From positions 1 to 22,820 of the forward strand of contig CAXXTX010000012.1 of assembly GCA_963666425.2 (NCBI GenBank): a stretch of 22,820 nt of DNA, written 5' to 3'. The translations under genes were made by a program, and so were the position numbers. Positions 128 to 14,977 of the stretch are shown here, piece after piece. Origin of the DNA: Bacillota bacterium. Lineage in GTDB: Bacteria > Bacillota > JAAYKD01. Within the stretch, counting starts at the first letter, position 1. Each line of letters begins with the position of its first letter. The notes under the pieces are model-generated. The model did not search any database. It was not told where the DNA came from and saw only the letters and a program-made list of their open reading frames with translations.

Positions 128-889
128 TCAAATGCCGCTGTAACGAACGCCAGTGTTCAAGTTGAGGTCTTCCCGGATTTGCCGTGACGGGTAGCTGGCC
201 ACACGTTTGGCAATGTCGCTCTCAGGGTTGTTCAGGTCACCAAACAGAATGGCTCCGTGCTCTGCTTCGGCACACGCGGTGACACAGGCGGGCATTTCAC
301 CGCGATCCACCTTGTGCACACACAGGGTGCAGCCTTCCACCGTGCCCATACCCCGTGGCACATCGGCCTTTTGGTCATGCAGGGGCTCATGGACAAACGA
401 GCGAGCCTTGTAAGGGCAGGCCATCACGCAGTAGCGGCAACCAATACATATGTGCTTGTCCACCAGCACAATACCGTCGGCCCGTTTGAATGAGGCTCCG
501 GTGGGGCACACATCCACACAGGGGGGCTCGGCACAATGCTGGCACATCATCGGCAGCGACTGGGTCTTGCCGGTGCGAATTTCCTTGATCTCGATCTTGC
601 GAATCCACTGCGAATCGGTGGGTAGCTTGCCACCTGACAGGCCGTTTTCGGTGTTGCAGGCGGTGACACAGGCGGTACATCCGCTGGCGCATTTGCTGCT
701 GTCAATCAACATGCCCCAGCGCACCTGTTTGCTAGCACCGGTTGCGGCAGTGAGTGGCGCGGCCTGGGCAATTTCAATCAGGCGAACGCCAGGAGCCAGC
801 ATCACACCCGCCAAACCAGCCGCAGCAACGCCCAAAAAGCCACGCCGACTTGGCACAAGGGCACTCCGTGTGTTTTGATCATGACTCAT
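128..889 (-). CDS. dsrO: DsrO, Tat-exported 4Fe-4S ferredoxin-type subunit of DsrMKJOP
   Basis: Tat motif SRRGFLG; Cys clusters CASGCTACVTAC, CQHCAEPPCVDVCP, CIGCRYCVMACP, CTLC. ATG at 889 overlaps the dsrJ stop (ATGA). Confidence 0.95.
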   Translation of the reverse strand: MSHDQNTRSALVPSRRGFLGVAAAGLAGVMLAPGVRLIEIAQAAPLTAATGASKQVRWGMLIDSSKCASGCTACVTACNTENGLSGGKLPTDSQWIRKIEIKEIRTGKTQSLPMMCQHCAEPPCVDVCPTGASFKRADGIVLVDKHICIGCRYCVMACPYKARSFVHEPLHDQKADVPRGMGTVEGCTLCVHKVDRGEMPACVTACAEAEHGAILFGDLNNPESDIAKRVASYPSRQIREDLNLNTGVRYSGI

Positions 890-1383
890 GGCTTGGCCTT
901 TTCCTGAACCAGCATCTGCTGCATTTGTGCAATCTGGGCTTGACCCACGCCCGCAGGCTGTTGCGCCAAGCCGGATGGCACCTCTTTCACCGCCGGTTTG
1001 TTGGCATGGCACTCAAAACAATCGATCTTGACGGCCGCATACGTATGGCAGCTCTGGCAAAAATCACCGGCCGACGCATTGACACTTTGGGTGCTCTGGC
1101 TGGCATGACATGACACACAGGCTTTAAGCGAGTATTTGCCTGTGCGAACACCGCCACGCAAGGTGTCGTCGCGCTGGTGTTTCAGCAGCTTCATGTGGTT
1201 ACGCCGCATGAAAGCCGCGTCTTCCACACACTGCCCTCCCCTGGCTTTTTCAATCAGGGGTTGCAGTCCTTGGGGCTTACCAGTCGATGCCGCAGAACCC
1301 TGCGCCGCAGCGCTCAGGCTGACCGTCAAAACAAGCCCGACACAGGCTGCCTGCCACCATCGAGCGCATGTCATCCCAAGCAT
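886..1383 (-). CDS. dsrJ: DsrJ, periplasmic triheme cytochrome c
   Basis: Signal peptide, CVEDAAFMRRNHM segment and three CxxCH motifs (CVSCH, CQSCH, CFECH); lies between dsrL and dsrO. The start could be the ATG at 1374. Confidence 0.93.
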   Translation of the reverse strand: MLGMTCARWWQAACVGLVLTVSLSAAAQGSAASTGKPQGLQPLIEKARGGQCVEDAAFMRRNHMKLLKHQRDDTLRGGVRTGKYSLKACVSCHASQSTQSVNASAGDFCQSCHTYAAVKIDCFECHANKPAVKEVPSGLAQQPAGVGQAQIAQMQQMLVQEKAKP

Positions 1384-1386
1384 GGG

Positions 1387-3345
1387 TCAGTCCCCCAAGC
1401 CCATCTGGATGTAGCCGGTTGGGCAGACATCCGCGCAAATGTGGCAGCCAATACATTTGCTGTAGTCGGTGTCCACATAACGCCCGGTGGTGGCTTTGGC
1501 CTTGGGCACTTTGAACACCGCCGTTTGCGGGCAATACACCACGCAGTTGTCACACTCAAAACACTGACCACAACTCATGCAGCGTTTGGCCTCTGCCTGG
1601 GCCTGGGCCTCCAGCAAGGGTTGCAAACGCTCATCAAAATTGTTCAGTGCCTCTTGTGCCGTCAAGGACACAATGCCGCGTTTATTGCGCGGTGCAAAGG
1701 GGAAATGGCCCAAAAACAGTTCTTTGTGGGAGATCACATAGCGGTCTGAGCGATTGTCATAGTTGTGAATGGCGGCCGTGCTCTTGTCCGTACCACGGGT
1801 GGGCTCATGCACCTCGGTGAACGTCAAACCTTTCTCCAGCATCTTGCGCTTGAGGTCAAACGCATGCACATCAATCTTGGGGCGTTTTTCCAGTGCCTCG
1901 CTGTGCAGAAAGCGGTCAATACCATCGGCCGCAATGGCCCCATGGCCAATGGCGGTGGTCAGCAAATGGGGGCGAACCACATCACCACCGACAAAGAAAC
2001 CGGCTTGCCCTTGCACCTGGTAATTCTTGTCAGAGTTGATGGCACCTTTGCCGTTGTTGAATTCTTCAAGACCGGTGAAGTCTACGGTTTGGCCAATGGC
2101 GGAGACGATCAGATCGGCCGGAATGTCCTCTTCAGTGCCTTCAACGTTTTTGATCTCCAGGCGGCCCCCCACCATCTTGGCTTCGCAGCGCATGATGCGC
2201 AAGGCCACAGCACGACCATCTTCACCCTGGATCACGGCCACCGGAACCATACTGCCCCGGATGGTGATGCCTTCAGACAAAGCGTGCTCGACCTCATGTT
2301 TGGAGGCTTGCATTTTGTCAATGGCAAAAACCGTGGTCAAAGTGACCTCTGCACCTTGCCGCACCGAAGCCTCAGCCACGTCATGCGCCACATGGCCGGC
2401 AATCGCATGCTCAGGACGATCTGACTCGTTGACCTTGTCGATATGCCCCAGACGACGTGCCACCGTGGCCACGTCAATCGAGGTGTCGCCGCCGCCAATC
2501 ACCACCACCCGTTTACCCACATGGCGCAGACGGCCATCGTTGAACGCTTTCAGGAATGATGTGGCGGTGACGCAGTTCGGCGCATCAGCCCCCTCCACCG
2601 CCAAGGCGCGGCCCGCCTGGGCCCCCAAGCCCAAAAACACGGCATCAAAATCCTCACGAATCTGCGCCATGGTGATGTCGGTGCCAATGCGGCAATTCAT
2701 GCGGGCCACCACACCCAGATCCAGAATACGCGCAATTTCAGCGTCCAGCACATCCCGTGGTGTGCGGAAACCGGGAATACCGTAGCGCATCATGCCGCCC
2801 AATTCGGCCCGCTCGTCAAAAATGGTGACCGAGTGACCTTTCAAGGCGAGTTGGTACGCGGCAGACATACCGGCGGGACCACCACCAATCACGGCCACGG
2901 TTTTGCCGGTAAGCTGTTCCGGTTTCTTGAACGCCAGCTTGTTCTTGATGGCGTAGTCACCCAGAAAGTGCTCCACCGAGTTGATGCCGACAAAGTCTTC
3001 CACCTGGTTGCGGTTGCAGCCCGATTCACACGGTGCGGGGCAGACCCGGCCCATCACGGAAGGAAATGGGTTGGCTTCGGTCAGGCGGCGAAAGGCATAT
3101 TCTTGCCAGACCATGCCTGCGGGTGGTTTTTCAATACCGCGAACAATGTTCAGGTAGCCGCGAATATCTTCACCGGCCGGGCAACTGCCTTGGCATGGCG
3201 GCGTGCTTTGAATGTAGGTCGGGCATTTGTGAGAGTGCCCGGCATCAAATATTTGCGCCTGCCAGGTTTTGACTTTGGATTCACCGTCTTTAAAACGACG
3301 AAACGTGAGGGGTTTGACTTCGATGGCTTCGGGGGTCGCAGACAT
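1387..3345 (-). CDS. dsrL: DsrL, iron-sulfur flavoprotein NAD(P)H:acceptor oxidoreductase (DsrL-1-like)
   Basis: GltD-like N-terminus (PPCQGSCPAG, GRVCPAPCESGCNR), two Rossmann motifs (VIGGGPAG, VIGGGDT) and a C-terminal 2x[4Fe-4S] domain. ATG at 3345 follows AGGAGA. Confidence 0.95.
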   Translation of the reverse strand: MSATPEAIEVKPLTFRRFKDGESKVKTWQAQIFDAGHSHKCPTYIQSTPPCQGSCPAGEDIRGYLNIVRGIEKPPAGMVWQEYAFRRLTEANPFPSVMGRVCPAPCESGCNRNQVEDFVGINSVEHFLGDYAIKNKLAFKKPEQLTGKTVAVIGGGPAGMSAAYQLALKGHSVTIFDERAELGGMMRYGIPGFRTPRDVLDAEIARILDLGVVARMNCRIGTDITMAQIREDFDAVFLGLGAQAGRALAVEGADAPNCVTATSFLKAFNDGRLRHVGKRVVVIGGGDTSIDVATVARRLGHIDKVNESDRPEHAIAGHVAHDVAEASVRQGAEVTLTTVFAIDKMQASKHEVEHALSEGITIRGSMVPVAVIQGEDGRAVALRIMRCEAKMVGGRLEIKNVEGTEEDIPADLIVSAIGQTVDFTGLEEFNNGKGAINSDKNYQVQGQAGFFVGGDVVRPHLLTTAIGHGAIAADGIDRFLHSEALEKRPKIDVHAFDLKRKMLEKGLTFTEVHEPTRGTDKSTAAIHNYDNRSDRYVISHKELFLGHFPFAPRNKRGIVSLTAQEALNNFDERLQPLLEAQAQAEAKRCMSCGQCFECDNCVVYCPQTAVFKVPKAKATTGRYVDTDYSKCIGCHICADVCPTGYIQMGLGD

Positions 3346-3391
3346 GTTGGAATCTCCTGGTTTTTTGTGCTTTAAGGGCTGAAAGACGGGG

Positions 3392-4885
3392 CTACTTGTC
3401 GCCCAGACGAATGGCCTTGCTGACCAATTGGTGGACACCGCCCACCATGCTCATGTTGAATCCGTAATACGGCAGAACCTTGGTGAACTGGGCTTTGCAG
3501 ATGGCACAAATCGTGGCCATGAAATTCACACCGTGGTCGTCCACCACATGTTTGAGGGACTCCATCCGGGGCAACGCACCCTTGACACGTAATTCCATCA
3601 AGTCATCGGTCAACAGGCCACCACCACCACCGCAGCAAAAGGTGCTTTCGTGAATAGTTTCCTGGGCCATGTCATGAAAATGGTTGGCCACCGAGGTGAT
3701 GATGCGCCGGGGAATGACAAACTGCCCACCCGGCATGTTGCCCATGCGTGAACCCCGCGCCACATTGCATGAGTCATGGAAAGTGATGATGCGGTGGTCG
3801 TTGGCCTCTTTGTCAAACTGCAGTGCACCGCGTTGAATCAGGTCATCGGTCAGCTCACAAATGTGCTGGGGCACCGGGTAGCGCGGGTCCAGGTAATCAA
3901 ACGGTCCAATCAAGGTATTCCAGAAGCTGTAGGCCACCCGCCAGGCGTGCCCACACTCACCCACCACAATGCGCTTGACACCCAGCTCCAGCGCGGCCTC
4001 TTTGACCCGCATGGAAATGTTGCGCATTTGCTCATAATTGCCAATGAACATGCCAAAGTTGCCGGCCTCGGAGGCATGGGAGCTCAGCGTCCAACTGATG
4101 CCAGCGGCGTGAAACACCTTGGCATAACCGATCAGGCTCTCCACATGCGGTTCCGAGAAAAAGTCTGCTGAAGGGGTGATCAGCAGCACTTCAGCGCCCT
4201 TCACGTCGATCGGGAACTTGACATCCACACCGGTGTCGTCCTTGACATCTTCTTCAAGACCTTCAAGGGTGTTGAGCAAGGCCGGGCCGGGTAGCCCCAA
4301 GTTGTTGCCGATGCGGTGCACCTTGCCAATGATTTCATTGGAATATTTTTGCCCCTGCCCAACCGAGTCCATGATCTCGCGGGCGGCCATGGTGACTTCT
4401 GCGGTGTCAATGCCATACGGGCAAAACACCGAGCAGCGGCGGCACTCGGAACACTGGTTGAAGTAGCTGTACCACTCGTCCAGCACCTCACGGGTGAGGT
4501 CAACCGCGCCGACCAGTTTGGGGAAATATTTACCGGCAAAAGTGAAATACCGGCGGTAGATTTTGCGCATCAAATCCTGGCGCGCCACCGGCATGTTTTT
4601 GGGATCAGCCGAGCCCAAAAAGTAATGACATTTGTCTGAGCAGGCCCCGCAATGGACACAGGCATCCATGTAAACCTGAAGCGAGCGGTATTTGCCCAGC
4701 ATTTCGCCCATCTTGGCGATCACTTTGTCTTGCCAGTCTTCCACCAAACCCTCAGGAAAACCCAAGGCTTTCTGGATGGGCCCGGCAGCCGGGAACGACT
4801 TGATATGCGACATGGCCCCGACTTGCACCAGGGGAATGACCGGATAACTCTTCAGTTTGGGGGTTTCAAATGCAGCGGTGGCCAT
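3392..4885 (-). CDS. dsrK: DsrK, HdrD-like Fe-S/CCG-domain subunit
   Basis: CVHCGACSDKC, CSECRRCSVFCP, GECGH, HDSC, CCGGGGG and CAIC motifs; follows dsrM. Confidence 0.96.
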   Translation of the reverse strand: MATAAFETPKLKSYPVIPLVQVGAMSHIKSFPAAGPIQKALGFPEGLVEDWQDKVIAKMGEMLGKYRSLQVYMDACVHCGACSDKCHYFLGSADPKNMPVARQDLMRKIYRRYFTFAGKYFPKLVGAVDLTREVLDEWYSYFNQCSECRRCSVFCPYGIDTAEVTMAAREIMDSVGQGQKYSNEIIGKVHRIGNNLGLPGPALLNTLEGLEEDVKDDTGVDVKFPIDVKGAEVLLITPSADFFSEPHVESLIGYAKVFHAAGISWTLSSHASEAGNFGMFIGNYEQMRNISMRVKEAALELGVKRIVVGECGHAWRVAYSFWNTLIGPFDYLDPRYPVPQHICELTDDLIQRGALQFDKEANDHRIITFHDSCNVARGSRMGNMPGGQFVIPRRIITSVANHFHDMAQETIHESTFCCGGGGGLLTDDLMELRVKGALPRMESLKHVVDDHGVNFMATICAICKAQFTKVLPYYGFNMSMVGGVHQLVSKAIRLGDK

Positions 4886-4900
4886 GATCGAGGATGTTGT

Positions 4901-5635
4901 TTAGGCTTTTTTATCCAGAGCGGCGGCCCAAGCCGAAACGTGGCGAACTTCGCGGGCGTTATCCACTTGATTGCGGGTCGGGCTGAAAAACAGGCCGGGT
5001 GCATGCAAGAGCTTGCTGATTGGAAAAATAATCATGAGAACCGCCACCAGGCCCAAGTGCACCAGTAGCACTGGGTCTGCAGGCAAAGGCTGCACATTCA
5101 GACGCATCAGCCCCAGCACAAAGGCCTTGAGCGCCACGATGTCGGTGTGGGCCACATAACGCATGGCCAGACCACTCAGGCCAATGGCCAGCAGCAGCAC
5201 CAGCATCAGGTGATCAGAGGGTGTAGAGATGTAGCGCACTCGATCCACCAGCCAGCGCCGTGCCCACAAGCCACCCAACGCGGCCACCATGGCAAAACCG
5301 GCGTAGAGGCCAAAGGGTTGAACCAGCACCACTGGCAACCAAACCGGATCCTGAAAGTAGCGCAGATGGCGCAACACCACCAGCAGCAGCGCCACATGGA
5401 ACAGCCAGCCAAAAATCCAGGTCCATTTGCTGGACTTGAACAGGCTCTCGAAAAATACCACTTCACGCGCCATGCGCCAGCGCACTCCGCCCACGGTGGT
5501 GGGGGCCGGTGTGGTGGGAATTTTCAAAGGCGCGGGTGTTTGTGCATAGATCCGAATTTTGCGAGCCACCCCAACAACGAAGATGATGGTGGCAAGGTAG
5601 AGCAACACCGCATAAACAATTGTCAACATGGACAT
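4901..5635 (-). CDS. dsrM: DsrM, NarI-like membrane cytochrome b
   Basis: Multiple TM helices with His ligands (WLFH..LRHLRY, LVHL, SKLLHAPG), PAPLKIPTTPAP and PTRNQVDN segments. Confidence 0.95.
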   Translation of the reverse strand: MSMLTIVYAVLLYLATIIFVVGVARKIRIYAQTPAPLKIPTTPAPTTVGGVRWRMAREVVFFESLFKSSKWTWIFGWLFHVALLLVVLRHLRYFQDPVWLPVVLVQPFGLYAGFAMVAALGGLWARRWLVDRVRYISTPSDHLMLVLLLAIGLSGLAMRYVAHTDIVALKAFVLGLMRLNVQPLPADPVLLVHLGLVAVLMIIFPISKLLHAPGLFFSPTRNQVDNAREVRHVSAWAAALDKKA

Positions 5636-5667
5636 GGTCTGGCCCGCAAGTTCGTGGATGTCAATTC

Positions 5668-5829
5668 AGGGATGCAGAAATTGCCAATGTCCCGTTTATG
5701 GCGAGCGCTGGAGGGATGCAGTGCTAGGCGTAAAGCGCGACGTGTGGCGAGCCACACTAGCGATTTGCAACGACGCAATGCGCCCGCCAGTGCCGCCAGA
5801 AATGGGATATTTGGCATTTCTGCATCCCT
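5668..5829. mobile_element. 162-bp imperfect palindromic MITE/REP-like element between dsrC and dsrM
   Basis: The ends share a perfect 14-bp inverted repeat (AGGGATGCAGAAAT) that continues imperfectly for about 50 nt. Central hairpin GTGTGGC-GA-GCCACAC at 5742-5757. Confidence 0.75.
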
Positions 5830-5833
5830 AAGC

Positions 5834-6166
5834 TCAGATACAGCCTGTGGGCTTAGGCAAGCCTGCAATCTTGCAAGCTTGTTTGGCCGGGCCATAGGGG
5901 AACAGGTCGTACAGGTACTTGCTGTTGCCTTTTTCTTCGCCAAATTTCTTGCCAATGGCCTTGGTCAAGACACGCACAGCGGGTGCGATCTGGAACTCGT
6001 TGTAGTACTCACGCAGGAAGTTGATCACTTCCCAGTGGTTGTCTGACAACGGTACTTTTTCTTCTTCAGCCAGGTGAACCGCTGCGTCAGTGGTCCATTC
6101 AGCCAGGTTGATCAAATAACCTTCTTCGTCAGTTTCATAGGTCTTGCCGTTGATTTCAAAGCTCAT
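5834..6166 (-). CDS. dsrC: DsrC sulfur carrier (both C-terminal cysteines present)
   Basis: [19 protein letters not shown] and C-terminal [19 protein letters not shown] with CysB and CysA; canonical operon position. Confidence 0.97.
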
Positions 6167-6204
6167 CTTGTGCTCCAGTTTGTAAATTGTTAAAAGGGGA
6201 TGGC

Positions 6205-6504
6205 TTAGAGCCAGGAATGGGAGGTGTCGTATTTCTCGACCAGGTCAACAAATCCGCCGTAGTCCACCAGGTTGACACCCGGCATCAATTTGGCAGACAT
6301 GCCGCGTGCGTCCAGGTCGGGTTGCAGCACAAACACGCTCAAATTGGCGCAAGCTTGTGTCATGCGCTCCTGTGCGGCGCTGCCCTGTGTGGCGGCATAA
6401 ATACCGTCTTCGATCAACAACAAGGCATGCCCTGGCTGGGCCATGCGCAAGCAGGTATCGAGCGTGTTTTTTTCAAAGGGTGATTTGTTAATGATGTGCA
6501 GCAT
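6205..6504 (-). CDS. dsrH: DsrH (TusB family)
   Basis: [27 protein letters not shown] and [10 protein letters not shown] motifs. Confidence 0.96.
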
Positions 6505-6521
6505 GTTCGTCTTTCTCTTTA

Positions 6522-6759
6522 AACCTAGATTCCTTAGTTGGACACGCCCGAGTGGGCTGTCAGGAGCGTGTCTGGGTAGGCGCGACGACGCTGAAGGCTC
6601 CTGCCTTCGAGGAGGAGCAACGCCCCCAGGCGCGTTCCTGGCGGCTCAATCGGGTGTGTAGCGTCGTCACCCAAAAAGTGAAGTGGATCAACGCTGGAAA
6701 AGTCAATGTTCATAGGCACTTACTGATACAAATGAGCGGTCAACTGAGGAATCTAGGTT
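6522..6759. mobile_element. 238-bp MITE-like element between dsrF and dsrH
   Basis: 19-bp terminal inverted repeats match 18/19: AACCTAGATTCCTTAGTTG (6522-6540) vs the reverse complement of CAACTGAGGAATCTAGGTT (6741-6759). Long internal imperfect hairpin at about 6542-6659. The right end overlaps the dsrF stop codon. Confidence 0.8.
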
Positions 6760-7153
6760 AGAAGCTCAGGATCACGTCCTGTTGCGCCATCAGTTCACCC
6801 ATTTGCTTGGCATCGAGCACTTCCACCGGCACGAGCAGATCACTGGTACTCAAACCACGTTGATCCAGAGAGTCCTGATCGACGTAGAGTTTTTCAACGT
6901 CATAACCGTCCAAGGCCCGATAGCTTGGCGAAAAGTTTTTGATGCCAATGCCTTTGGTTTGCTGACCCTTGGCAAGCTCATACACACCATCGTCGATAAA
7001 CACCAGGCTCACGTCCTGGTCAAAGGTGGCGGTGATCAACACCACTTCCAGGCTTTCAAGGGCGTAGATGGTGCCGTAAGGGGCCTTGCGGTTGACAAAC
7101 ATGAATTTCTTCACTTTGGGGCCGCTGGCTGCAGTTGTTGCTTGTTCACTCAT
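6758..7153 (-). CDS. dsrF: DsrF (TusC family)
   Basis: KKFMFVNRKAPYGTIYALESLEVVLI, FIDDGVY and SLDQRGL motifs. Confidence 0.96.
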   Translation of the reverse strand: MSEQATTAASGPKVKKFMFVNRKAPYGTIYALESLEVVLITATFDQDVSLVFIDDGVYELAKGQQTKGIGIKNFSPSYRALDGYDVEKLYVDQDSLDQRGLSTSDLLVPVEVLDAKQMGELMAQQDVILSF

Positions 7154-7173
7154 GGTGTGTTCTTCTCAAGGGG

Positions 7174-7533
7174 TTAATCACCAAAGGTCACCAGGCGGTC
7201 GGCCTTGATGCCACTGTCCACCAACTGGCCCAGACCCGAAATGCGAAACCCGGGAGCCAAGACTTCTTCTTTGATGCCCCGGCGCAAGGCCGCAGCCACA
7301 CACACCACCAGATCAACCTTGTGCTCAGCAGCCAGGCTAGACCAGCGGTTCACCACATGGCGGTCATCTTGCGGTGGCTCGGTGAGCCGGGTCGCGTTGT
7401 TGACCCCATCGTGGTAGAAAAACACACGTTGAATGGTGTGGCCTTTGCTCAGTGCCGCCACCACAAACTGGTAAGCGCTGTCTGACGCCTGGTGCGTGTA
7501 AGGGCCTTCATTGACGAGTACGCCAAATTTCAT
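7174..7533 (-). CDS. dsrE: DsrE (TusD family) sulfurtransferase
   Basis: NEGPYTHQASDSAY, RVFFYHDGV, active-site Cys in VVCVAAALRRG, and SGLGQL. Confidence 0.96.
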   Translation of the reverse strand: MKFGVLVNEGPYTHQASDSAYQFVVAALSKGHTIQRVFFYHDGVNNATRLTEPPQDDRHVVNRWSSLAAEHKVDLVVCVAAALRRGIKEEVLAPGFRISGLGQLVDSGIKADRLVTFGD

Positions 7534-7560: not shown

Positions 7561-7582
7561 GGACAGAGCTTGAGCTCTGTCC
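7561..7582. other. Perfect hairpin in the dsrB-dsrE spacer
   Basis: GGACAGAGC-TTGA-GCTCTGTCC, a 9-10 bp stem. No U-run follows on the transcribed (minus) strand. Confidence 0.6.
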
Positions 7583-7610: not shown

Positions 7611-8681
7611 TTAGAAACGAATGTGGGTCGAGGCGTTCAGGCTGGCACGAGAACCACGCCAGTCATCAATCAGGTACTTGGTGAAGGGCAAGTCGCATTT
7701 TTCAAAGAATGCGGGCCAGCCAATACGGTCAATCCAGTCGGCCATGCGTTCCCACGAACGGGCATCGGCCTTGTAGGTGGTCAAAATCTTCTTGACCATG
7801 GCCGAGACCTCTGGCCAACGTGGCGCGTTATTGGGCAAGCCCGAAGCCACCATCTTCATGAAAGTCGGTTTGCCACGCGCATTGGAGTTCTTGCCACCCA
7901 CCCAGATCGCCAGCTTGCTGTTTTCCGGGTCGTTGATCTGCATTGGGGGGCAGGGTGGGTAGCAAGCGCCGCAGCACATACATTTGGATTCGTCAATTTC
8001 AAGTGACGGTTTGCCATTGACCATGGCCGGGCGAATCGCCGCCACCGGGCAACGCGCCACCACGGTGGGGCGTTCACACATGTTGGCTACCAAGTCGTGG
8101 TTGATCTTGGGGGGTTTGGTGTGTTGAACAATGATGGCAATGTCAGCTTGGCCACCGCAATTGATTTCGCAGCAGGAGGTGGACAAGTGAACCCGGTTGG
8201 GCATTTCTTCCTTGATGAATTCCTCATGTAACTCATCCATCAATGCCTTGACTGCGCCAGAGGCATCTGTACCCGGAATATCGCAGTGCAACCAGCCCTG
8301 GGTGTGGGCAATGGCAGATACCGAGTTACCGGTGCCACCGACTGGAAAGCCATTGGTGGTGAGCGCCTCGATCAAGGGCTCCACACGGGCCGGGTCAGAC
8401 ACCATGTACTCGATGTTGGAGCGGATGGTGAAGCGCACATGGCCGTCGGCATAGGTGTCGGCAATGTCGCACAGCTTGCGGATGGTGAACAAATCCATTT
8501 GACGCTGCGTGCCGGCACGCACGGTCCAGATTTGGTCGCCGCTGTGGGCCACGTGGTGCAACACACCGGGGCGTGGCCGGTCATGGTATTTCCAGTTGCC
8601 GTAGTTACGGGCCATCAATGGGTGCAGGTATTGCTTGTTGTCGGGTACGCCGCTCTCAATGGGGGTGCGCATAGTTGCCAT
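7611..8681 (-). CDS. dsrB: Reverse dissimilatory sulfite reductase beta subunit
   Basis: HTQGWLHCDIPGTDASG, TSCCEINCGG, ferredoxin motif CMCCGAC, NNAPRWPE, and C-terminus LNASTHIRF. Confidence 0.98.
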   Translation of the reverse strand: MATMRTPIESGVPDNKQYLHPLMARNYGNWKYHDRPRPGVLHHVAHSGDQIWTVRAGTQRQMDLFTIRKLCDIADTYADGHVRFTIRSNIEYMVSDPARVEPLIEALTTNGFPVGGTGNSVSAIAHTQGWLHCDIPGTDASGAVKALMDELHEEFIKEEMPNRVHLSTSCCEINCGGQADIAIIVQHTKPPKINHDLVANMCERPTVVARCPVAAIRPAMVNGKPSLEIDESKCMCCGACYPPCPPMQINDPENSKLAIWVGGKNSNARGKPTFMKMVASGLPNNAPRWPEVSAMVKKILTTYKADARSWERMADWIDRIGWPAFFEKCDLPFTKYLIDDWRGSRASLNASTHIRF

Positions 8682-8720
8682 GGTGATCTTTCTTAGTCAG
8701 TTATCAAGGACAAGCTGGTT

Positions 8721-10001
8721 TCAGGCAGCGGCTTTACGGGCGTTGATCTTGGCGACCTCGTCATCCCAGCCATCGGTGCGAACGTAGGGGTTGGTGCGAG
8801 GTGTCGTCACCATGTTGGCATCAATCTCCAGGCCAATACCTTCAAGGAAATTGATCAGACCAATACGTTCGATCATTTCGCCGGTGCGCTCATGCTCCAG
8901 TGCGTTCTCGGCAAAGAAGTCAATCGACTTCTGCGCAATCTCAACCAGAGCCTCGTAGTCTTCTTCGGTTTTCAGGGGCAAGAACGGCACCACCACCGTG
9001 CCCATCAGGTCACCAATTTTGAGGGTACGTTTGCCGCCCATCAGAATGGTGGCACCTTTGTCAACGCCAGTACCCAGAGCGCCCGTCATAACGTTGATGC
9101 AGTGCATACAACGCACGCAGTTGCCATTGTCAATTTCCAGTGAGTTCGTGTCGCTGACCGCCACTGACGAAATTTTGGCCCCCTGGCAGACATCTTTGCT
9201 TTCCTTGAGCATGATGGCTTTGGTCGGGCAGCGGCTGACCACGTCATTGACCAGCTCGGTCATGCCATGTTTGTCGAACCATTTGCGAGCCAGCGCTTCA
9301 TCGGTACGGATGTTGTCGCGCCAGGTGCCAATCACTGCCATGTCGGCGCGTTGAATGGAGTTCATGCAGTCATTCGGGCAACCCGAAAACTTGAACTTGA
9401 ACTTGTAAGGCAAGGCCGGGCGGTGCATATCATCCAGAAAGGTGTTGAGCACTTGACGATGCGCACGGGCTTCGTCATAACAGGACTGCTCACACCGGGC
9501 AGCCCCCACACACGACATGCTGGTCCGCACGGCCGGGCCGGCCCCCCCCAGATCAAACCCCAACTCGTTCAACTCATCAAACGCCCCTTGCACATTGGCA
9601 GTGCTGGCCCCCTGGAACATGATGTCACCCGACTGGCCGTGAAAAGCGATCAGGCCTGAGCCATGTTTTTCCCAGATGTCACACATTTTGCGTAGCACAT
9701 CGGTGTTGTAGTGCATGCCTGCGGGCGGCTGAATCCGCAAGGTGTGAAACTCCTTGGAAGCCGGAAACATCTCGGCCACTTCGGAGAAACGTGGAATCAC
9801 CCCGCCCCCGTAGCCAAACACACCAACCGTGCCGCCCTTCCAATACCCTTTGCGGGTTTTGTAGGAGTGCTCCAGCTGACCCATCAGGTCAGTCATGTAC
9901 TCACTGTCTTTGGCCAGGCGTTTCAGGCCTGTCACAAAACTGGGCCACGGACCGCTTTCAAGCTGGTCGAGCATGGGGGTGTCATGTTGCTTCTTGCTCA
10001 T
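8721..10001 (-). CDS. dsrA: Reverse dissimilatory sulfite reductase alpha subunit
   Basis: TPMLDQLESGPWPSFV, WKGGTVGVFGYGGG, siroheme-[4Fe-4S] Cys motifs CVGAARC and SGCPNDC, and CVRCMHC. Confidence 0.98.
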   Translation of the reverse strand: MSKKQHDTPMLDQLESGPWPSFVTGLKRLAKDSEYMTDLMGQLEHSYKTRKGYWKGGTVGVFGYGGGVIPRFSEVAEMFPASKEFHTLRIQPPAGMHYNTDVLRKMCDIWEKHGSGLIAFHGQSGDIMFQGASTANVQGAFDELNELGFDLGGAGPAVRTSMSCVGAARCEQSCYDEARAHRQVLNTFLDDMHRPALPYKFKFKFSGCPNDCMNSIQRADMAVIGTWRDNIRTDEALARKWFDKHGMTELVNDVVSRCPTKAIMLKESKDVCQGAKISSVAVSDTNSLEIDNGNCVRCMHCINVMTGALGTGVDKGATILMGGKRTLKIGDLMGTVVVPFLPLKTEEDYEALVEIAQKSIDFFAENALEHERTGEMIERIGLINFLEGIGLEIDANMVTTPRTNPYVRTDGWDDEVAKINARKAAA

Positions 10002-10289
10002 CGAGTGTCTCCTGTCATGGGGCGCAGGGCTTGCGCTGATCGGTCGAACCGGGCGTTTTGGTCAATCACACTGGGCAGTGCACATTGATCAAATCTGGGC
10101 TAAATCGTAGGAGCCAGCGCCACAGTTCACCATCCCCCTCGTTGGGTATTTAGGGCTACCCATTTGGGCTATACCGCCCCACCCGTCCCGGTAATAGACG
10201 ATCAGCCCCTCTATTGCGCCCAATAGAGGCCTAGGCAATTTGCTTGGCATTGAGCCTGACAAATGTTGACTGATCTCACCCAACAACCC
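10002..10289. promoter_or_regulatory. Divergent promoter region between dsrA and the cas6-containing operon, with dyad elements
   Basis: Head-to-head gene layout. Perfect inverted repeat CCTCTATTG-CGCC-CAATAGAGG (10208-10229) and TGGGTA-N8-TACCCA (10143-10162). Promoter boxes were not confidently located. Confidence 0.55.
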
Positions 10290-10529
10290 ATGAACACCCT
10301 CACGCCCCTTGCCAAACTGACCATTCCCATCGGTGGGCAAGTCATTGAATTGCAGCAACTCGACTACGAGGCCGGTGGCATGAGCCTGCTGCGCACCCGC
10401 ATTCGTGAAAAAAGCCGCTTCACCGTGTTTGACATTGACCCGCAATCGGCCCAGCTCTGGGGCGAAGCCTTGCTGCGCTGGGCGCAAGCACAACCCGCAG
10501 CCATGCCGGATGCAGAGGTGTCTTCATGA
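10290..10529 (+). CDS. Small conserved hypothetical protein (DUF6967-like, from memory)
   Basis: 79 aa containing GGMSLLRTRIREKSRFTVFDID. Its stop overlaps the cas6 start (ATGA). Alternative start at 10263. Confidence 0.75.
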   Translation: MNTLTPLAKLTIPIGGQVIELQQLDYEAGGMSLLRTRIREKSRFTVFDIDPQSAQLWGEALLRWAQAQPAAMPDAEVSS

Positions 10530-11140
10530 GCTTGAACCCAGTGCTTGAGAGCACATCGGTCGATGTGGTTTTCCCTCTGGAAGGGGCGTTTCTGCCGCGT
10601 GATCACGCCCAAGTGCTAAAAGATGCGCTGTGCCACCAATGGCCGTTTCTTGAACAGGAAAGCCAGGTTGGCATTCACGCCGTGAAACTCGTCAGCGGCT
10701 GCGATGAACCCGCCCTGCTGTCACGTCGCACCAAGCTGTTGCTGCGCGTCCCCACCCTGCTGGCCGCTGAATTGCTGACCACACAAGGCGTTGATTTGCG
10801 CGTAGATGGCCAAACCCTGCGCCTGGGCCAGCCCCATACCCGCGAATTGCAGCCCCATGCCACCTTGTATGCCTACCAGGTGGCCGCCAGCAGCGCCGAT
10901 GAAGTGGCCTTCATGGCGGATGTGACACGCGAGCTGGCGAGCCTGGAGATTGCGGGTGAACGGGTCTGCGGCAAACACCAGCACATGACACTGAGCGGCG
11001 CTGTGGTGAACACCTTCAGCCTGATGCTGCATGGCTTGCGGCCAGAACAATCCTTGCGCGTGCAAGAACACGGCATTGGCCCACACCGGCTTCTCGGGTG
11101 TGGGCTGTTTATTCCTCACAAATCCGCAGCAGCGGTATGA
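10526..11140 (+). CDS. cas6: Orphan Cas6-family RAMP protein (type I-MYXAN Cas6/Cmx6-like)
   Basis: N-terminal VDVVFPLEGAFLPRDH, GIHAV, LSRRTKLLLRVP, SLRVQEHG, and the C-terminal Cas6 G-rich loop GIGPHRLLGCGLF (GhGxxxxxGhG). Confidence 0.88.
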   Translation: MSLNPVLESTSVDVVFPLEGAFLPRDHAQVLKDALCHQWPFLEQESQVGIHAVKLVSGCDEPALLSRRTKLLLRVPTLLAAELLTTQGVDLRVDGQTLRLGQPHTRELQPHATLYAYQVAASSADEVAFMADVTRELASLEIAGERVCGKHQHMTLSGAVVNTFSLMLHGLRPEQSLRVQEHGIGPHRLLGCGLFIPHKSAAAV

Positions 11141-11168: not shown

Positions 11169-11498
11169 ATGGGTTACAGCATCAATGGCACCGAAGTTGA
11201 GGCCGACGAGCAAGGTTTTCTAATGGAGCCACTGTATGACGATGAAGCCGTGCGGGTGATTGCGCAGGCCGAAAACATCAGCCTGACCGATGCCCACTGG
11301 GAAGTGGTGAACTACCTGCGTGAAGAATACCGCGAGCACGGCCACACCCCCAACTTTCGTAACATGCTAAAGGGTTTTGCCGAAATTCACCCCGGTGTGG
11401 ACAGCAAATACCTGTACGACTTGTTCCCCATTGGCCCAGCCAAACAAGGCCCCAAAGTGGCCGCCTTGCCGCAGCCCTTGGGCAAAGGTGGTTACTAA
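11169..11498 (+). CDS. DsrC/TusE-family paralogue lacking both C-terminal cysteines (RspA-type)
   Basis: DEQGFL, LTDAHWEVVNYLREEY, YLYDLFPIGPAKQ, ending GPKVAALPQPLGKGGY. The protein contains no Cys. ATG at 11169 follows AAGGAGA. Confidence 0.9.
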   Translation: MGYSINGTEVEADEQGFLMEPLYDDEAVRVIAQAENISLTDAHWEVVNYLREEYREHGHTPNFRNMLKGFAEIHPGVDSKYLYDLFPIGPAKQGPKVAALPQPLGKGGY

Positions 11499-11510: not shown

Positions 11511-12128
11511 ATGGCCAACATCAGAATCAAAAGCCAGTGGTTTCGTGATGGCCCGGCCAAAACGCCACAGCAAAACGCCAGCGCCATGGCCTTCATCACC
11601 TGGCGTGTGGCACAAAACACGCTCAAACAAATGCGCAGCGCCAGTTTTGACATTGAGATCGGGCCACAGTACTTTGCCTTCACCCGCGAAGTCTTGGTGT
11701 TTTTGATTCAGGTGATTGACCGCATGGCCAATGAACGTATGGATGCCGACTTGCGTGCTGAGTTCATGACGGCACTGGTATTGCGCGTGGCAGAAGTCCT
11801 GCAAGACAACGAAGACGGCCTGCTCGGCCCCACTCCAGCCGGACAAGCCAGCTCCCGTGATCAATTCATTGACCTGTTCAACGAATTGGCCGACCACTAT
11901 GCAGACTTTGGCTTCAACACCGATGGCCCGGATTTTGCCTTTGTGCGCTACCTGGGCCATCGCATTGAAGCCCTGATGCCGCAAAAAGACCAGCGCTGGG
12001 TGGTAGATCAAATCATGGCCAGCGAAGTGCCCGATGCCTTTGGCATGATCAAGCGCGGCCTGCAAGGTGTGTTGTCCACCGAGCCACGGCCGCAACGCGC
12101 AGCCCGTGCGGTGGCCTCGGGTGATTAG
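11511..12128 (+). CDS. Conserved hypothetical protein, predicted mostly helical
   Basis: 205-aa ORF with AAGGA RBS, tightly packed in the operon. No recognised motif. Confidence 0.8.
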   Translation: MANIRIKSQWFRDGPAKTPQQNASAMAFITWRVAQNTLKQMRSASFDIEIGPQYFAFTREVLVFLIQVIDRMANERMDADLRAEFMTALVLRVAEVLQDNEDGLLGPTPAGQASSRDQFIDLFNELADHYADFGFNTDGPDFAFVRYLGHRIEALMPQKDQRWVVDQIMASEVPDAFGMIKRGLQGVLSTEPRPQRAARAVASGD

Positions 12129-12130
12129 CC

Positions 12131-13064
12131 ATGACCCAGCCCTTTGACCTCACCCAAGCGTCAGCCTACCAGCGCTGGCGCGATGCCAAGCTGGCCAAAC
12201 TGCCGCGCCAGGCCAGCGACCTGATCGTCGATGTGGTCGACCCCAGATCGCTCCAAAAAGAAGAGCTGCTTGCGCTTATCAAACGGTGCTCAGAGGCCAA
12301 TATGGCCATTTATCGCAGCCCGATCAAAGACGAAGACAAGGCGATTCCCCCTGCGCTTGGGTCAGCAATTGGGCCTGCACCGGCTTGACGGCAACTGGCT
12401 GGCCGATGAAGACGGCGTGTCACCGATTGCGGTGGCCGCCCCGGTGGGTGATCGCCCGGCCTTTATTCCCTACACCAACCGCCCGATCAAGTGGCATACC
12501 GACGGCTATTACCAGCCCCCAGAGCGCCTGATCCGCGCCATGGTTTTGCATTGTGTGCGCCCGGCCAGCAGCGGTGGCGATACCGCGCTGATCGATCATG
12601 AGATGGCCTACATGGCCCTGCGTGATGCCAACCCTGAATGGGTTCGCGCCCTGATGGCCACGGATGCCATGACCATTCCCGAGCGGCTGGACGACGATGG
12701 CATCGCCCGCCCGGCACAGACCGGCCCGGTGTTTGTGGTCGATGCCCAAAGTGGTGAATTACACATGCGCTACACCGCACGCACCCGCAGCATCGTCTGG
12801 AAAAACAATACCGCCACCCAGGAAGCCATCGCCTTTTTGACCGAGTTTCTGGCCAGCGACAGCCCCTGGGTGTGGCGTTTGCGCCTGCAAGCCGGTATGG
12901 GGCTGGTGTGCAACAACGTGCTGCACGACCGCAGCGGTTTTGTCGATGACCCGCTGCACCCCCGGCTGTTGTACCGGGCTCGCTACCTGGATCGCATCAG
13001 CTCTGCGGAAATTTATAACAAATCAGCCTCTAGCGCTTTATTAACATGCGCAAGCAGCTATTAA
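12131..13064 (+). pseudogene. TauD/TfdA-family Fe(II)/2-oxoglutarate dioxygenase-like gene split by a +1 frameshift
   Basis: ORFs 12131-12388 and 12231-13064 join into one 310-aa frame if one C is removed from the C5 run at 12347-12351. Has HxD (WHTDGYY), LHCVRPAxxGG and distal H..R (NNVLHDR). Confidence 0.8.
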
Positions 13065-13079: not shown

Positions 13080-14555
13080 ATGACCCACAAAGTCAGCATC
13101 TGGCGCGCCGCACAACTTCTGGGGATTGCCCGTGGGGTGTTGCAACATCAGGTGCGAGAAGGCACGCTGGTGCTGGAAGACGGCTGGGTGTCCACCGATG
13201 TGCTGGCGCAGCTCTACCCGCATGCCCAACTGGAGGAGTCCGGCATGCTGGAGCGGGTGAGCCAGATTCGCGACGAAGCGTTTGGCAAACGGGTGCGCGA
13301 GCGCCTGTTGCCCAGCCAGGAGGTGTTGGCGCAGCGCATGTTTGCCCAAAGCCAGGAGCTGGCCGACTTGCGCCGCCATTTGCAGCGCTATCACACCCTG
13401 GTGATTGAGTTGCAGCAAAAAATCCGCCAACAATGCCAGCAGCAACCCAGTGCCGTGGCCTGGCTTGAACTGGAACAACAAATCACCCAGGGCTTGGCCC
13501 AGGCCCTGGCGACCGAGCCGGTCGGCATGCTGGAGGTGATGGACGATATGCTCAAAATCATGACCGCCCATGTCACGGTACGCCCCAGCGGGCACGAATT
13601 CTCGGTCGAAGGCCACGCCAATCTGTTGCAAGCCGGTTTGCATTCCGGGCTCAAGCTCAACTACGGCTGTGGCAACGGCAGTTGTGGCATGTGCAAGGTG
13701 CGGGTGATTGACGGCAAGGTGGCCCCCACCCAGCATTCAGACTACATTTTTTCAGAGGCCGAAAAAGCCCAGGGCTACACCCTGATGTGCTGCAACACTG
13801 CCGCCAGCAGCAGCCTCAGTCTGGAGCTGCTCGAAGCCAGTGGCCCACAAGACATTGCGCAACAGCTCATTGTGAGCACGGTGCGTGCCATCACCCCCCT
13901 GGCCCCGGACACCTTGCTGCTGCACTTGCAAACCCCACGCACCCACCGCTTGCGCTTTCTGGCCGGCCAGTCGGTGCAGCTTGGCCTATCCTTGCCGGGG
14001 CAAGGTGACATGTCGGCCATCTACCCGGTGGCCAGTTGCCCCTGTGATGACCGGAACCTGCTGTTTTTTGTGACACGTAACCCGGCTGATGCCTTGGCCA
14101 GCCAACTGTTTGCGGGTCATGTCAAACACGGCACCAGCCTCACGGTGACCGGCCCCAGCGGTGAATTTGTGTTGTCCGCAGGTCACCGGCCGTTGGTTTT
14201 TGCGGCTTGTGATGAAGGTTTTGGACCCATCAAAAGCCTGATCGAATACGCCTTGTCACTGGATGCTGCGCCATCACTGTCCCTGTTTTGGCTGGCCACC
14301 CGCAACGACGGTCACTTTTACGGCAACCAATGCCGTGCCTGGTCTGACGCATTGGATCAGTTCGAGTTTGAGTTGGTCACCCAACCCGATGCTGCCATGG
14401 GAGCCTGGCAAATTGCTCAAGCCATGCGGGCAGATTTGTTTGACATTGACTGCGACTTTTACCTGGCCGGGCCGATGAACTTCATCCAGACTTTGCATGA
14501 TGAATTACGCACCTCGGGCGTGGCCGAATCACAAATTTTTACCCAACTGCTTTGA
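13080..14555 (+). CDS. Fusion protein: N-terminal HTH-like segment, coiled coil, [2Fe-2S] ferredoxin and FAD/NAD-binding reductase-like domains
   Basis: VSIWRAAQLLGIARGVLQHQVREGTL (excisionase/MerR-like HTH); YGCGNGSCGMCK..TLMC ([2Fe-2S]); LRFLAGQ, GPSGEF, GFGPIKSLIE and YLAGP (FNR-like). Confidence 0.85.
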   Translation: MTHKVSIWRAAQLLGIARGVLQHQVREGTLVLEDGWVSTDVLAQLYPHAQLEESGMLERVSQIRDEAFGKRVRERLLPSQEVLAQRMFAQSQELADLRRHLQRYHTLVIELQQKIRQQCQQQPSAVAWLELEQQITQGLAQALATEPVGMLEVMDDMLKIMTAHVTVRPSGHEFSVEGHANLLQAGLHSGLKLNYGCGNGSCGMCKVRVIDGKVAPTQHSDYIFSEAEKAQGYTLMCCNTAASSSLSLELLEASGPQDIAQQLIVSTVRAITPLAPDTLLLHLQTPRTHRLRFLAGQSVQLGLSLPGQGDMSAIYPVASCPCDDRNLLFFVTRNPADALASQLFAGHVKHGTSLTVTGPSGEFVLSAGHRPLVFAACDEGFGPIKSLIEYALSLDAAPSLSLFWLATRNDGHFYGNQCRAWSDALDQFEFELVTQPDAAMGAWQIAQAMRADLFDIDCDFYLAGPMNFIQTLHDELRTSGVAESQIFTQLL

Positions 14556-14977
14556 TGCCGTTGCGCTTACCCACTTTTTTGGCAATGCAAACACCTGCAG
14601 CACACACCACAACATTACCCACCGGGGCAGAAATCCATTCGCAGCCGGTTGCCAACAACATGGCCCTGCCCGATTGCGCCGGTGGCGAGTCTTTTGCCCT
14701 GATGGTGCAAGGCCAAAGCATGGTGCCTGAGTTTCAGGAAGGTGAGATCATTCTGATCGAACCCGAAGGCCTGGCCAAAGAGGGCGCGTATGTGCTGGCC
14801 TGGCACCAGGACGAATGGACGTTCAGGCAACTTTTGCGCAACACTGAGGGCTGGTTGCTGCACGCCCTGAACCCGGCGTTTGAGGATGAAAAGCTGGCTG
14901 ATTTATCGGCCATCAAAGGGGTCATCATCCAGAAAGCCTTGCCGGGCAGACGACGCGCTTCCAAGTTTTATGTCTGA
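14555..14977 (+). CDS. Stand-alone S24 (LexA/UmuD-like) peptidase domain protein
   Basis: FALMVQGQSMVPEFQEGEIILIEP and LHALNPAF. No HTH. ATG overlaps the upstream stop (TGATG); alternative start at 14585. Confidence 0.85.
   Translation: MPLRLPTFLAMQTPAAHTTTLPTGAEIHSQPVANNMALPDCAGGESFALMVQGQSMVPEFQEGEIILIEPEGLAKEGAYVLAWHQDEWTFRQLLRNTEGWLLHALNPAFEDEKLADLSAIKGVIIQKALPGRRRASKFYV

Follow-up and report, generated by a model that had tools for sequence, protein, structure and literature searches.

Contig CAXXTX010000012.1, a stretch of 22,820 bp that was analysed in full and is called the window here, carries an oxidative dsr locus and, divergent from dsrA and dsrB, a gene encoding a Cas6-like protein. 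The gene is an uninterrupted open reading frame (ORF) of 204 aa at 10526-11140 on the plus strand, and it belongs to a clade of Cas6 homologues found beside dsrAB rather than in CRISPR loci. Residues 22-27 of the protein read FLPRDH and residues 183-195 form a G-rich loop, GIGPHRLLGCGLF. The Pfam profile PF09559 "Cas6" matched the protein at 190 bits (E 5.4e-56, cut-off 26.7) over residues 12-200 and profile positions 1-191 of 191, and the NCBIfam profile TIGR02807 cas6_cmx6 (type I-MYXAN Cas6/Cmx6) at 146.5 bits against a cut-off of 98.85. The start codon of the gene and the TGA that closes the ORF before it, 10263-10529, overlap in the sequence ATGA. A preliminary description of this DNA had claimed an intact 204-aa RAMP-type ORF with an LPRDH segment and a G-rich loop, joined to the upstream ORF by an ATGA overlap, and the ORF, the motifs, the PF09559 match and the two coordinates bear it out.

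An AlphaFold2 model of the Cas6-like protein, built on an alignment of 137 homologues, had a mean predicted local distance difference test score (pLDDT) of 96.2 and a predicted template modelling score (pTM) of 0.91. It has the two ferredoxin-like/RRM halves of the RAMP fold together with the C-terminal glycine-rich loop. In a Foldseek search of the PDB the best matches were 8fcu_B and 8fcj_B (template modelling score (TM) 0.87, root-mean-square deviation ~2 Å, 24-25% identity), the remaining leading matches were Cas6/Cse3 chains only, and 8fcj_B was the sole PDB match found by sequence (E 1.2e-9). The preliminary description had named a Cas6 profile search and a structure prediction as checks, and the lack of a RAMP fold as a result that would speak against it; both profiles scored above their cut-offs and the model superimposes on Cas6. 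By sequence and fold, the protein belongs to Cas6/Cmx6.

The nearest solved structure, chain B of 8FCJ/8FCU, is the Cas6 of a type I-B CRISPR-associated transposon (CAST) Cascade, which according to the entry titles works outside immunity, in guide-RNA-directed transposition. The CAST Cas6 still acts on CRISPR RNA (crRNA) within Cascade, whereas the window has no array, no Cascade genes and no transposon. More distant Cas6 endoribonucleases, among them Pyrococcus Cas6, Cse3/Cas6e and Cas6b, share the two-RRM RAMP fold and the G-rich loop with the model (Foldseek probability 1.00 to 3pkm, 2y8w, 4c97 and 4z7k; TM 0.45-0.68, identity 9-16%). These general Cas6 enzymes are all CRISPR proteins, and they offer a model for a possible mode of action in which a short hairpin is bound and its base is cut.

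The features of the window are as follows.

128-7533, minus strand: rest of the dsr operon, with two DsrE-family genes, dsrH, dsrC, dsrM-, dsrK- and dsrL-like genes and a 4Fe-4S protein gene (Pfam)
7611-8681, minus strand: dsrB (TIGR02066, 516 bits)
8721-10001, minus strand: dsrA (TIGR02064, 534 bits)
10156-10171: operator-like inverted repeat CTACCC-N4-GGGCTA in the dsrA/DUF6967 intergenic region, the sole exact match in the window
10263-10529, plus strand: DUF6967, a small arginine-rich protein of 88 aa (PF22295, 95.4 bits)
10526-11140, plus strand: Cas6-like (RAMP) protein of the dsr-linked clade, 204 aa (PF09559, TIGR02807, AlphaFold2 model, Foldseek)
11169-11498, plus strand: DsrC/TusE/RspA-family paralogue, C-terminal arm without cysteines and ending GKGGY (PF04358, 102.7 bits; TIGR03342, 89.1 bits)
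11511-12128, plus strand: P3, a conserved helical protein of 205 aa outside named families (tblastn conservation, AlphaFold2 model)
12131-13064, plus strand: TauD/TfdA-family Fe(II)/2-oxoglutarate dioxygenase-like gene (PF02668, 77.3 bits)
13080-14555, plus strand: 2Fe-2S ferredoxin/FAD/NAD reductase, 491 aa (Fer2, FAD_binding_6)

The plus-strand series runs DUF6967, Cas6-like, DsrC-family, P3, TauD-family, ferredoxin/FAD reductase, S24 peptidase, SoxH-related metallo-hydrolase and methyltransferase. On the minus strand, the Pfam domains across 128-7533 are DsrE (twice), DsrH, DsrC, Nitrate_red_gam, Fer4/CCG, Pyr_redox_2/Fer4_20 and Fer4_11, and the names dsrM, dsrK, dsrL and dsrO used for this part are a reading from domain content. 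The boundary of dsrA lies 525 nt upstream of the Cas6-like gene on the opposite strand. The two had been described as head-to-head, of which the divergence stands and the direct adjacency does not: the DUF6967 gene separates them, and what faces dsrA is the operon with these two genes, DUF6967 and Cas6-like, at its start. The DsrC paralogue said to follow the Cas6-like gene is in place. No cas family was found among the 26 window ORFs scanned by profile and a repeat-chain scan of the whole contig gave no array, in agreement with the earlier statement that the window holds neither an array nor another cas gene.

The window is one contig (C13) of an 18-contig bin with a contamination of 6.85%. 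Its GC content of 56% exceeds that of the 2.9-Mb main contig, 47%, and within the bin both dsrA and PF09559 are confined to C13; PF09559 was found in 0/30 relatives of the bin. The nearest homologues of the Cas6-like protein, at 61-94% identity, are from Comamonadaceae and Rhodoferax, and a Rhodoferax metagenome-assembled genome (MAG; L005/L079) has the gene order of the window and a DsrA 94% identical. Given the GC gap, the contamination, the PF09559-free relatives and these closest homologues, the contig is probably mis-binned Comamonadaceae DNA from an organism other than that of the bin. Cas1 was not found in the bin, a result made uninformative by the probable mis-binning, and neither it nor a search of the bin for arrays therefore says anything about the Cas6-like gene. 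A k-mer chain scan of the bin returned 29 short candidate chains of 3-6 copies on C1, C2, C16 and C17 and none on C13.

Linkage to dsr and separation from CRISPR

To place the gene among its relatives we searched 401 genomes from the order of the Rhodoferax MAG closest to the window (the order sample) for PF09559, dsrA (TIGR02064, E<=1e-60) and Cas1 (PF01867, in a tally that includes one unpublished genome, G029). PF09559 was present in 81/401 genomes, at a single locus in all but one, dsrA in 83 and Cas1 in 151. PF09559 and dsrA occurred together in 80 genomes, PF09559 alone in 1 and dsrA alone in 3; the copy in the lone PF09559-only genome lies ~750 bp from a contig end. The Fisher p of this co-occurrence, 1.4e-79, is overstated by the non-independence of kin. 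For 78 of the 82 PF09559 copies dsrA was on the same contig, 443-2113 bp away and divergent in all 78, and for the other four the contig had no dsrA match, at least two of these copies being at or near a contig end. The preliminary description would have been contradicted by close homologues lying mostly inside cas loci, and had suggested a phylogeny and a neighbourhood survey; the homologues lie beside dsrA, and the survey together with the tree described below reveals a dsr-linked clade apart from CRISPR loci.

Cas1 was no more frequent in the presence of the Cas6-like gene than in its absence, occurring in 35/81 carriers and 116/320 non-carriers (p 0.25), and 46/81 carriers had no Cas1. Two carriers assembled in essentially one contig each (G368 and G177) have the Cas6-like gene and no Cas1 match, and any Cas1 listed on a contig shared with the Cas6-like gene was at least 42 kb from it.

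A second sample, at class level, gave the family in 121/381 genomes, a count that includes the unpublished genome G740, and 60 of the 121 loci were fetched. In 47/60 of them dsrAB lies within 1.2-5.8 kb of the Cas6-like gene, in an order unlike that of the window: dsrBA, then divergently TauD-like, Cas6-like and DsrC-like. Among the class-sample genomes whose copy is not beside dsr, nine were searched for dsrA, and it is present elsewhere in 9/9. Two genomes of ~1.1 Mb (G619 and G778) keep the Cas6-like gene beside dsrAB and have no Cas1. At phylum level the family was found in 4/356 genomes, the single new carrier (L186) having the gene order of the window. The three samples weight taxa differently and are mutually inconsistent as rates, so that each figure is valid within its own sample. 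The best 150 of 1047 representative clusters (50% identity, E<=0.001) interleave with dsr-linked sequences, which makes the clade a large one.

Two genomes carry the Cas6-like gene without linkage to dsr, at 6176-6883 of locus L161 (G749) and 7694-9237 of locus L159 (G583). At L161 it is divergent to an RNase III gene, rnc, as confirmed by Pfam; at L159 the neighbour appears rnc-era-like, judged by ORF sizes alone.

The relatives that do serve CRISPR are cyanobacterial. A tblastn search against plasmids returned seven cyanobacterial homologues of the Cas6-like gene, 25-31% identical, and five were inspected. Four of the five open cas6-cas3-cas8-cas7-cas5-cas4/cas1-cas2 operons (27-29% identity to the Cas6-like protein), one of the four with a 12-repeat array downstream. 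The cas6 genes of Synechocystis sp. PCC 6714 pSYLB, Gloeothece PCC 7424 and Nostoc plasmids agree with the Cas6-like protein in family and length and have in common with it the G-rich loop GxGxxRxxGCGxF, R74 and an A/P-D-H motif. The two groups differ in setting: the type I-MYXAN / I-B Cas6/Cmx6 genes open cas operons next to arrays, whereas the dsr clade lies beside dsrAB without cas genes. In a FastTree phylogeny of 282 sequences the 5 cyanobacterial sequences were split from all 277 dsr-type sequences with a support of 0.997, on a branch of ~1.0 substitutions/site.

The fifth cyanobacterial gene, at 8971-9762 of Gloeobacter morelensis plasmid pGMOR1 (L121), encodes a Cas6/Cmx6 with no cas genes within 9 kb. 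Its neighbours are two PAPS-reductase-family genes, a cupin and two DNA methyltransferases, and with this copy the family may have been put to non-CRISPR use a second time, independently.

Public records label these proteins "type I-MYXAN CRISPR-associated protein Cas6/Cmx6" or "CRISPR-associated protein Cas6", and the protein scores above the "equivalog" cut-off of TIGR02807, as would be expected of an ordinary crRNA-processing Cas6 that serves a distant array and is next to dsr by coincidence. The Cas1 of the 35 carriers would be in keeping with such a role, which is nonetheless close to excluded, since it has to account for the Cas1-free carriers, the two 1.1-Mb genomes among them, for adjacency to dsrA or dsrAB in both samples, for the distance of same-contig Cas1 and for a clade set apart from its cas-linked relatives in the tree; we give it next to no credence. 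In family and fold the protein is a Cas6/Cmx6, but it fails the "CRISPR-associated" assumption that the TIGR02807 equivalog carries. Co-occurrence with dsrA, divergent adjacency, the lack of association with Cas1 and retention in 1.1-Mb Cas1-free genomes establish a dsr-linked clade whose linkage is independent of CRISPR.

Co-option of Cas6 from CRISPR immunity to the dsr locus is thus strongly supported, and the polarity of the change, as read from the sequences, was likely recruitment from CRISPR. The outgroup consists of five sequences, so that the direction of evolution is thinly sampled. The preliminary description had proposed that this Cas6 was co-opted from immunity as an RNA-binding or processing regulator of dsr transcripts. 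Its first half, a CRISPR-independent dsr-linked clade with no nearby array to serve, is strongly supported; the regulator half is something we infer, from the evidence below.

Conserved residues and the search for an RNA target

The Cas6-like gene is under strong purifying selection. G183, G185, R188, G191, C192, G193 and F195 of the G-rich loop, together with R74, are invariant or nearly so in both the dsr-type and the cyanobacterial groups, and the A/P-D-H motif that opens helix 1 does not vary among the 5 cyanobacterial sequences. The dsr-type proteins also have conserved residues of their own, R68 (97%), H198 (84%) and K199 (91%), of which K199 is the less distinctive, another alignment having K in 3/5 cyanobacterial sequences. 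E126 was considered as a further dsr-type-specific residue and was dropped as alignment-dependent. In solved Cas6-RNA complexes the G-rich loop, arginines of the R74/R188 type and the D-H features contact or cut RNA. An RNA-directed activity is preferred because the RNA-contacting loop has been kept over a large divergence, and we put the chance that the Cas6-like protein acts on RNA at about one half.

The histidine of the D-H motif, H27 in the window protein, is a candidate for the catalytic histidine, as we judge from its invariance in cas-linked members and by comparison with other Cas6 enzymes. Position 27 is His in 59/60 class-sample, 56/80 order-sample and 5/5 cyanobacterial sequences and in 71/137 representatives. 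Tyr takes its place in 21/80 order-sample sequences and 55/137 representatives, and in none of the class sample.

The intergenic region between dsrA and DUF6967 holds a conserved element, the palindrome at 10156-10171. Variants of the form CTACCC-N4-GGGT(A/T)(G/A) occur in 49/75 order-sample intergenic regions, and the hexamer CTACCC/GGGTAG in 65/75 of these regions against 14/75 coding controls. In the class sample TATCCC-N4-GGGATA occurs in 15/40 loci and the CTACCC form in 0/47. Symmetric change of both half-sites between lineages fits an operator and an RNA element alike, and the 4-nt-loop geometry matches the repeat of the Synechocystis 6714 array. Because its 4-nt spacing is fixed and a weak second half-site is tolerated, the palindrome is more likely a DNA operator for a dimeric regulator than a hairpin for Cas6, as far as its sequence pattern can suggest.

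DUF6967, with R44, R52, D59 and W73 invariant in its alignment, was considered as a protein that tracks the palindrome. The gene is specific to the order-type arrangement (69/80 order-sample loci against 1/60 class-sample loci), and the 47 class-sample loci without the CTACCC form, which lack DUF6967 too, keep the architecture with TATCCC half-sites, so it was set aside. A complex prediction for DUF6967 and the Cas6-like protein returned a score of 0.01 and no verdict. In Allochromatium vinosum, according to the available passages of PMC5944118, DsrC is a DNA binder that occupies a site upstream of the dsr cluster, and by analogy the KGGY-ending DsrC paralogue could be a candidate binder of the palindrome.

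Several results weigh against an RNA-acting protein at this locus. An Rfam search of the window gave no match, and the locus yielded no conserved RNA hairpin. A perfect 10-bp inverted repeat, GGACAGAGCT..AGCTCTGTCC at 7561-7582, lies between dsrB and the first DsrE-family gene and is partly kept in the Rhodoferax locus L005; as a conserved target it was rejected, most of 47 relatives having unstructured spacers of 6-40 nt at this place. If transcribed, the palindrome would form only 3-4 bp in 30/45 strict instances and 3 bp in the window copy. An RNA run with 6% of sampled words yielded three contigs on dsrE, dsrB and dsrA only, none of them covering the Cas6-like gene. Since 21/80 order-sample sequences and 55/137 representatives have Tyr in place of His27, cleavage, if there is any, would not be uniformly kept in its CRISPR-linked form. 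Finally, the neighbours of the Cas6-like gene encode sulfur-carrier and redox proteins, not RNA enzymes, and a role at the protein level fits them equally well.

A further hairpin, at 10208-10229 upstream of DUF6967, is not kept in relatives and was discarded.

Operon partners and the role of the Cas6-like protein

The neighbours of the gene were counted by tblastn with the window proteins in 80 order-sample loci, some of them cut by contig ends. DsrA was found in 79, the DsrC-like protein in 74, P3 in 74 and the TauD-like protein in 61. A two-domain rhodanese occurred in 39/80 loci, a tandem TusA in 33/80, and one or the other in 71/80; these sit between the DsrC-like gene and P3, and the operon of the window has neither. 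The DsrC paralogue ends in GKGGY in 69/70 listed order-sample sequences and in GKAGY in the remaining 1. In 48/60 class-sample loci the DsrC-like gene directly follows the Cas6-like gene, with an RKGGY end in 48/48, and the TauD-like gene is present in 45/60. The core of the module is the Cas6-like gene and the KGGY-tailed DsrC paralogue, usually with the TauD-like gene. The window shows the pattern of the clade, a Cas6-like gene near and divergent from dsrAB and followed by the KGGY DsrC paralogue.

DsrC/TusE/RspA members without cysteines are reportedly regulators. The partner at 11169-11498 is a member that likewise lacks both C-terminal cysteines; the family name is used in passages of PMC8477390. 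The available passages of PMC8477390 and PMC5944118 mention neither the invariance of the KGGY end nor a fixed pairing of such a protein with a Cas6-like gene. The KGGY tail may be a recognition or modification site.

Other members of the operon are less constant or less clear. For P3 there was no Pfam or NCBIfam match, only hypothetical proteins in Atlas and no PDB fold match at E<=0.001; its AlphaFold2 model has six helices and a pLDDT of 92.3. The TauD-like gene of the window is split over two frames, 12131-12388 and about 12357-13064. In the Rhodoferax locus L079 a single 317-aa TauD-like ORF matches window frame 2 (12128-12373) and frame 3 (12357-13004), and contigs of run X2 have one base missing at 12347 relative to the window. 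The split, near 12347-12373, is either an assembly error or a real frameshift. A ferredoxin/FAD reductase was found in 6/80 order-sample loci and an S24 (LexA/UmuD-like) peptidase in 8/80. The pair, at 13080-14977 in the window, follows the TauD-like gene here and in a minority of loci that includes L079, L107, L118 and L186.

These partners invite an explanation without RNA, in which the Cas6 fold now serves the sulfur relay as a protein-binding module. Its task might be to hold the KGGY tail or to present it to DsrAB or the TauD-like dioxygenase; alternatively, rhodanese or TusA might use it as a scaffold. Such a module would agree with the constancy of the KGGY DsrC paralogue and the TauD-like protein in both samples, with rhodanese or tandem TusA in most order-sample loci and with the failure to find an RNA target in the locus; R68 and H198, conserved in dsr-type proteins and variable in CRISPR-linked ones, suggest a new interface. 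In a pure scaffold, however, one would hardly expect the G-rich loop, R74, R188 and the D-H motif to stay unchanged over so large a divergence, as they have, and we regard this explanation as unlikely, though one to be taken seriously.

TusE acts in tRNA 2-thiouridine synthesis, and the DsrC paralogue belongs to the DsrC/TusE family (TIGR03342, 89.1 bits) with a weak match to the TusE profile NF008562. It is therefore conceivable that the Cas6-like protein delivers a stable RNA, for instance tRNA, either to the dioxygenase or to a TusE-like relay, so that the operon would modify RNA and not regulate mRNA. The TusA-like and rhodanese genes of the operon would suit this, as would the rnc and rnc-like neighbours of the two dsr-unlinked copies. 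On the other hand the tail of the paralogue is free of cysteine and therefore would carry no persulfide, the phyletic pattern tracks dsrA and not tRNA metabolism, and no tRNA-modifying enzyme was found among the operon genes. Modification of a stable RNA is accordingly improbable.

The best explanation overall, to which we give an even chance, is a Cas6-derived accessory protein of the dsr locus that likely acts on RNA. A clade derived from Cas6 would have given up its part in CRISPR immunity and settled at the oxidative dsr locus as a fixed accessory gene, heading or sitting in an operon divergent from dsrAB, with the cysteine-less KGGY DsrC paralogue as its constant partner. Because the G-rich loop, R74 and R188 are retained, and the D-H motif in most members, the likeliest activity of the protein is that it continues to bind a specific structured RNA, which it may also cut. 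Sulfur-oxidation transcripts could then be its targets at the post-transcriptional level; it might, for instance, trim or protect mRNAs of the dsr locus, perhaps jointly with the KGGY-tailed DsrC paralogue. A narrower form of this reading, in which a sequence-specific RNA binder or cutter is a co-inherited part of the Dsr pathway with the KGGY DsrC paralogue and the 2-oxoglutarate dioxygenase, and provides an RNA-dependent step, is tentative and falls short of an even chance.

A search of full-text literature, with subscription journals and supplements outside its scope, found no paper linking Cas6, Cmx6, PF09559 or DUF6967 to dsr. Neither CRISPR nor Cas6 occurs in the dsr-focused PMC11406059 and PMC8477390, and in the available passages of PMC5944118 Cas6 is confined to the CRISPR section.

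If true, the recruitment described here would amount to a natural and large-scale instance of a Cas6 taken into a housekeeping energy pathway. At least 150 clusters (50% identity) resemble the dsr type, and annotation pipelines label all of them type I-MYXAN Cas6/Cmx6, labels that would make "orphan cas genes" seem more numerous in sulfur oxidisers than they are. The oxidative dsr locus gains an uncharacterised operon, near-universal at this locus in the sampled genomes, of the Cas6-like protein, the KGGY DsrC paralogue, the TauD-like protein, P3 and rhodanese or TusA. The survival of the gene pair in 1.1-Mb genomes argues that it matters to the pathway, and the operon offers a concrete handle on the control of dsr expression or on DsrC chemistry. 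The Cas6-like gene may also serve to mark oxidative-type dsr loci in metagenomes. Should the RNA-directed role hold, sulfur oxidation in Gammaproteobacteria, Burkholderiales included, would contain an undescribed RNA-dependent step, either control of dsr mRNA or an RNA-linked relay.

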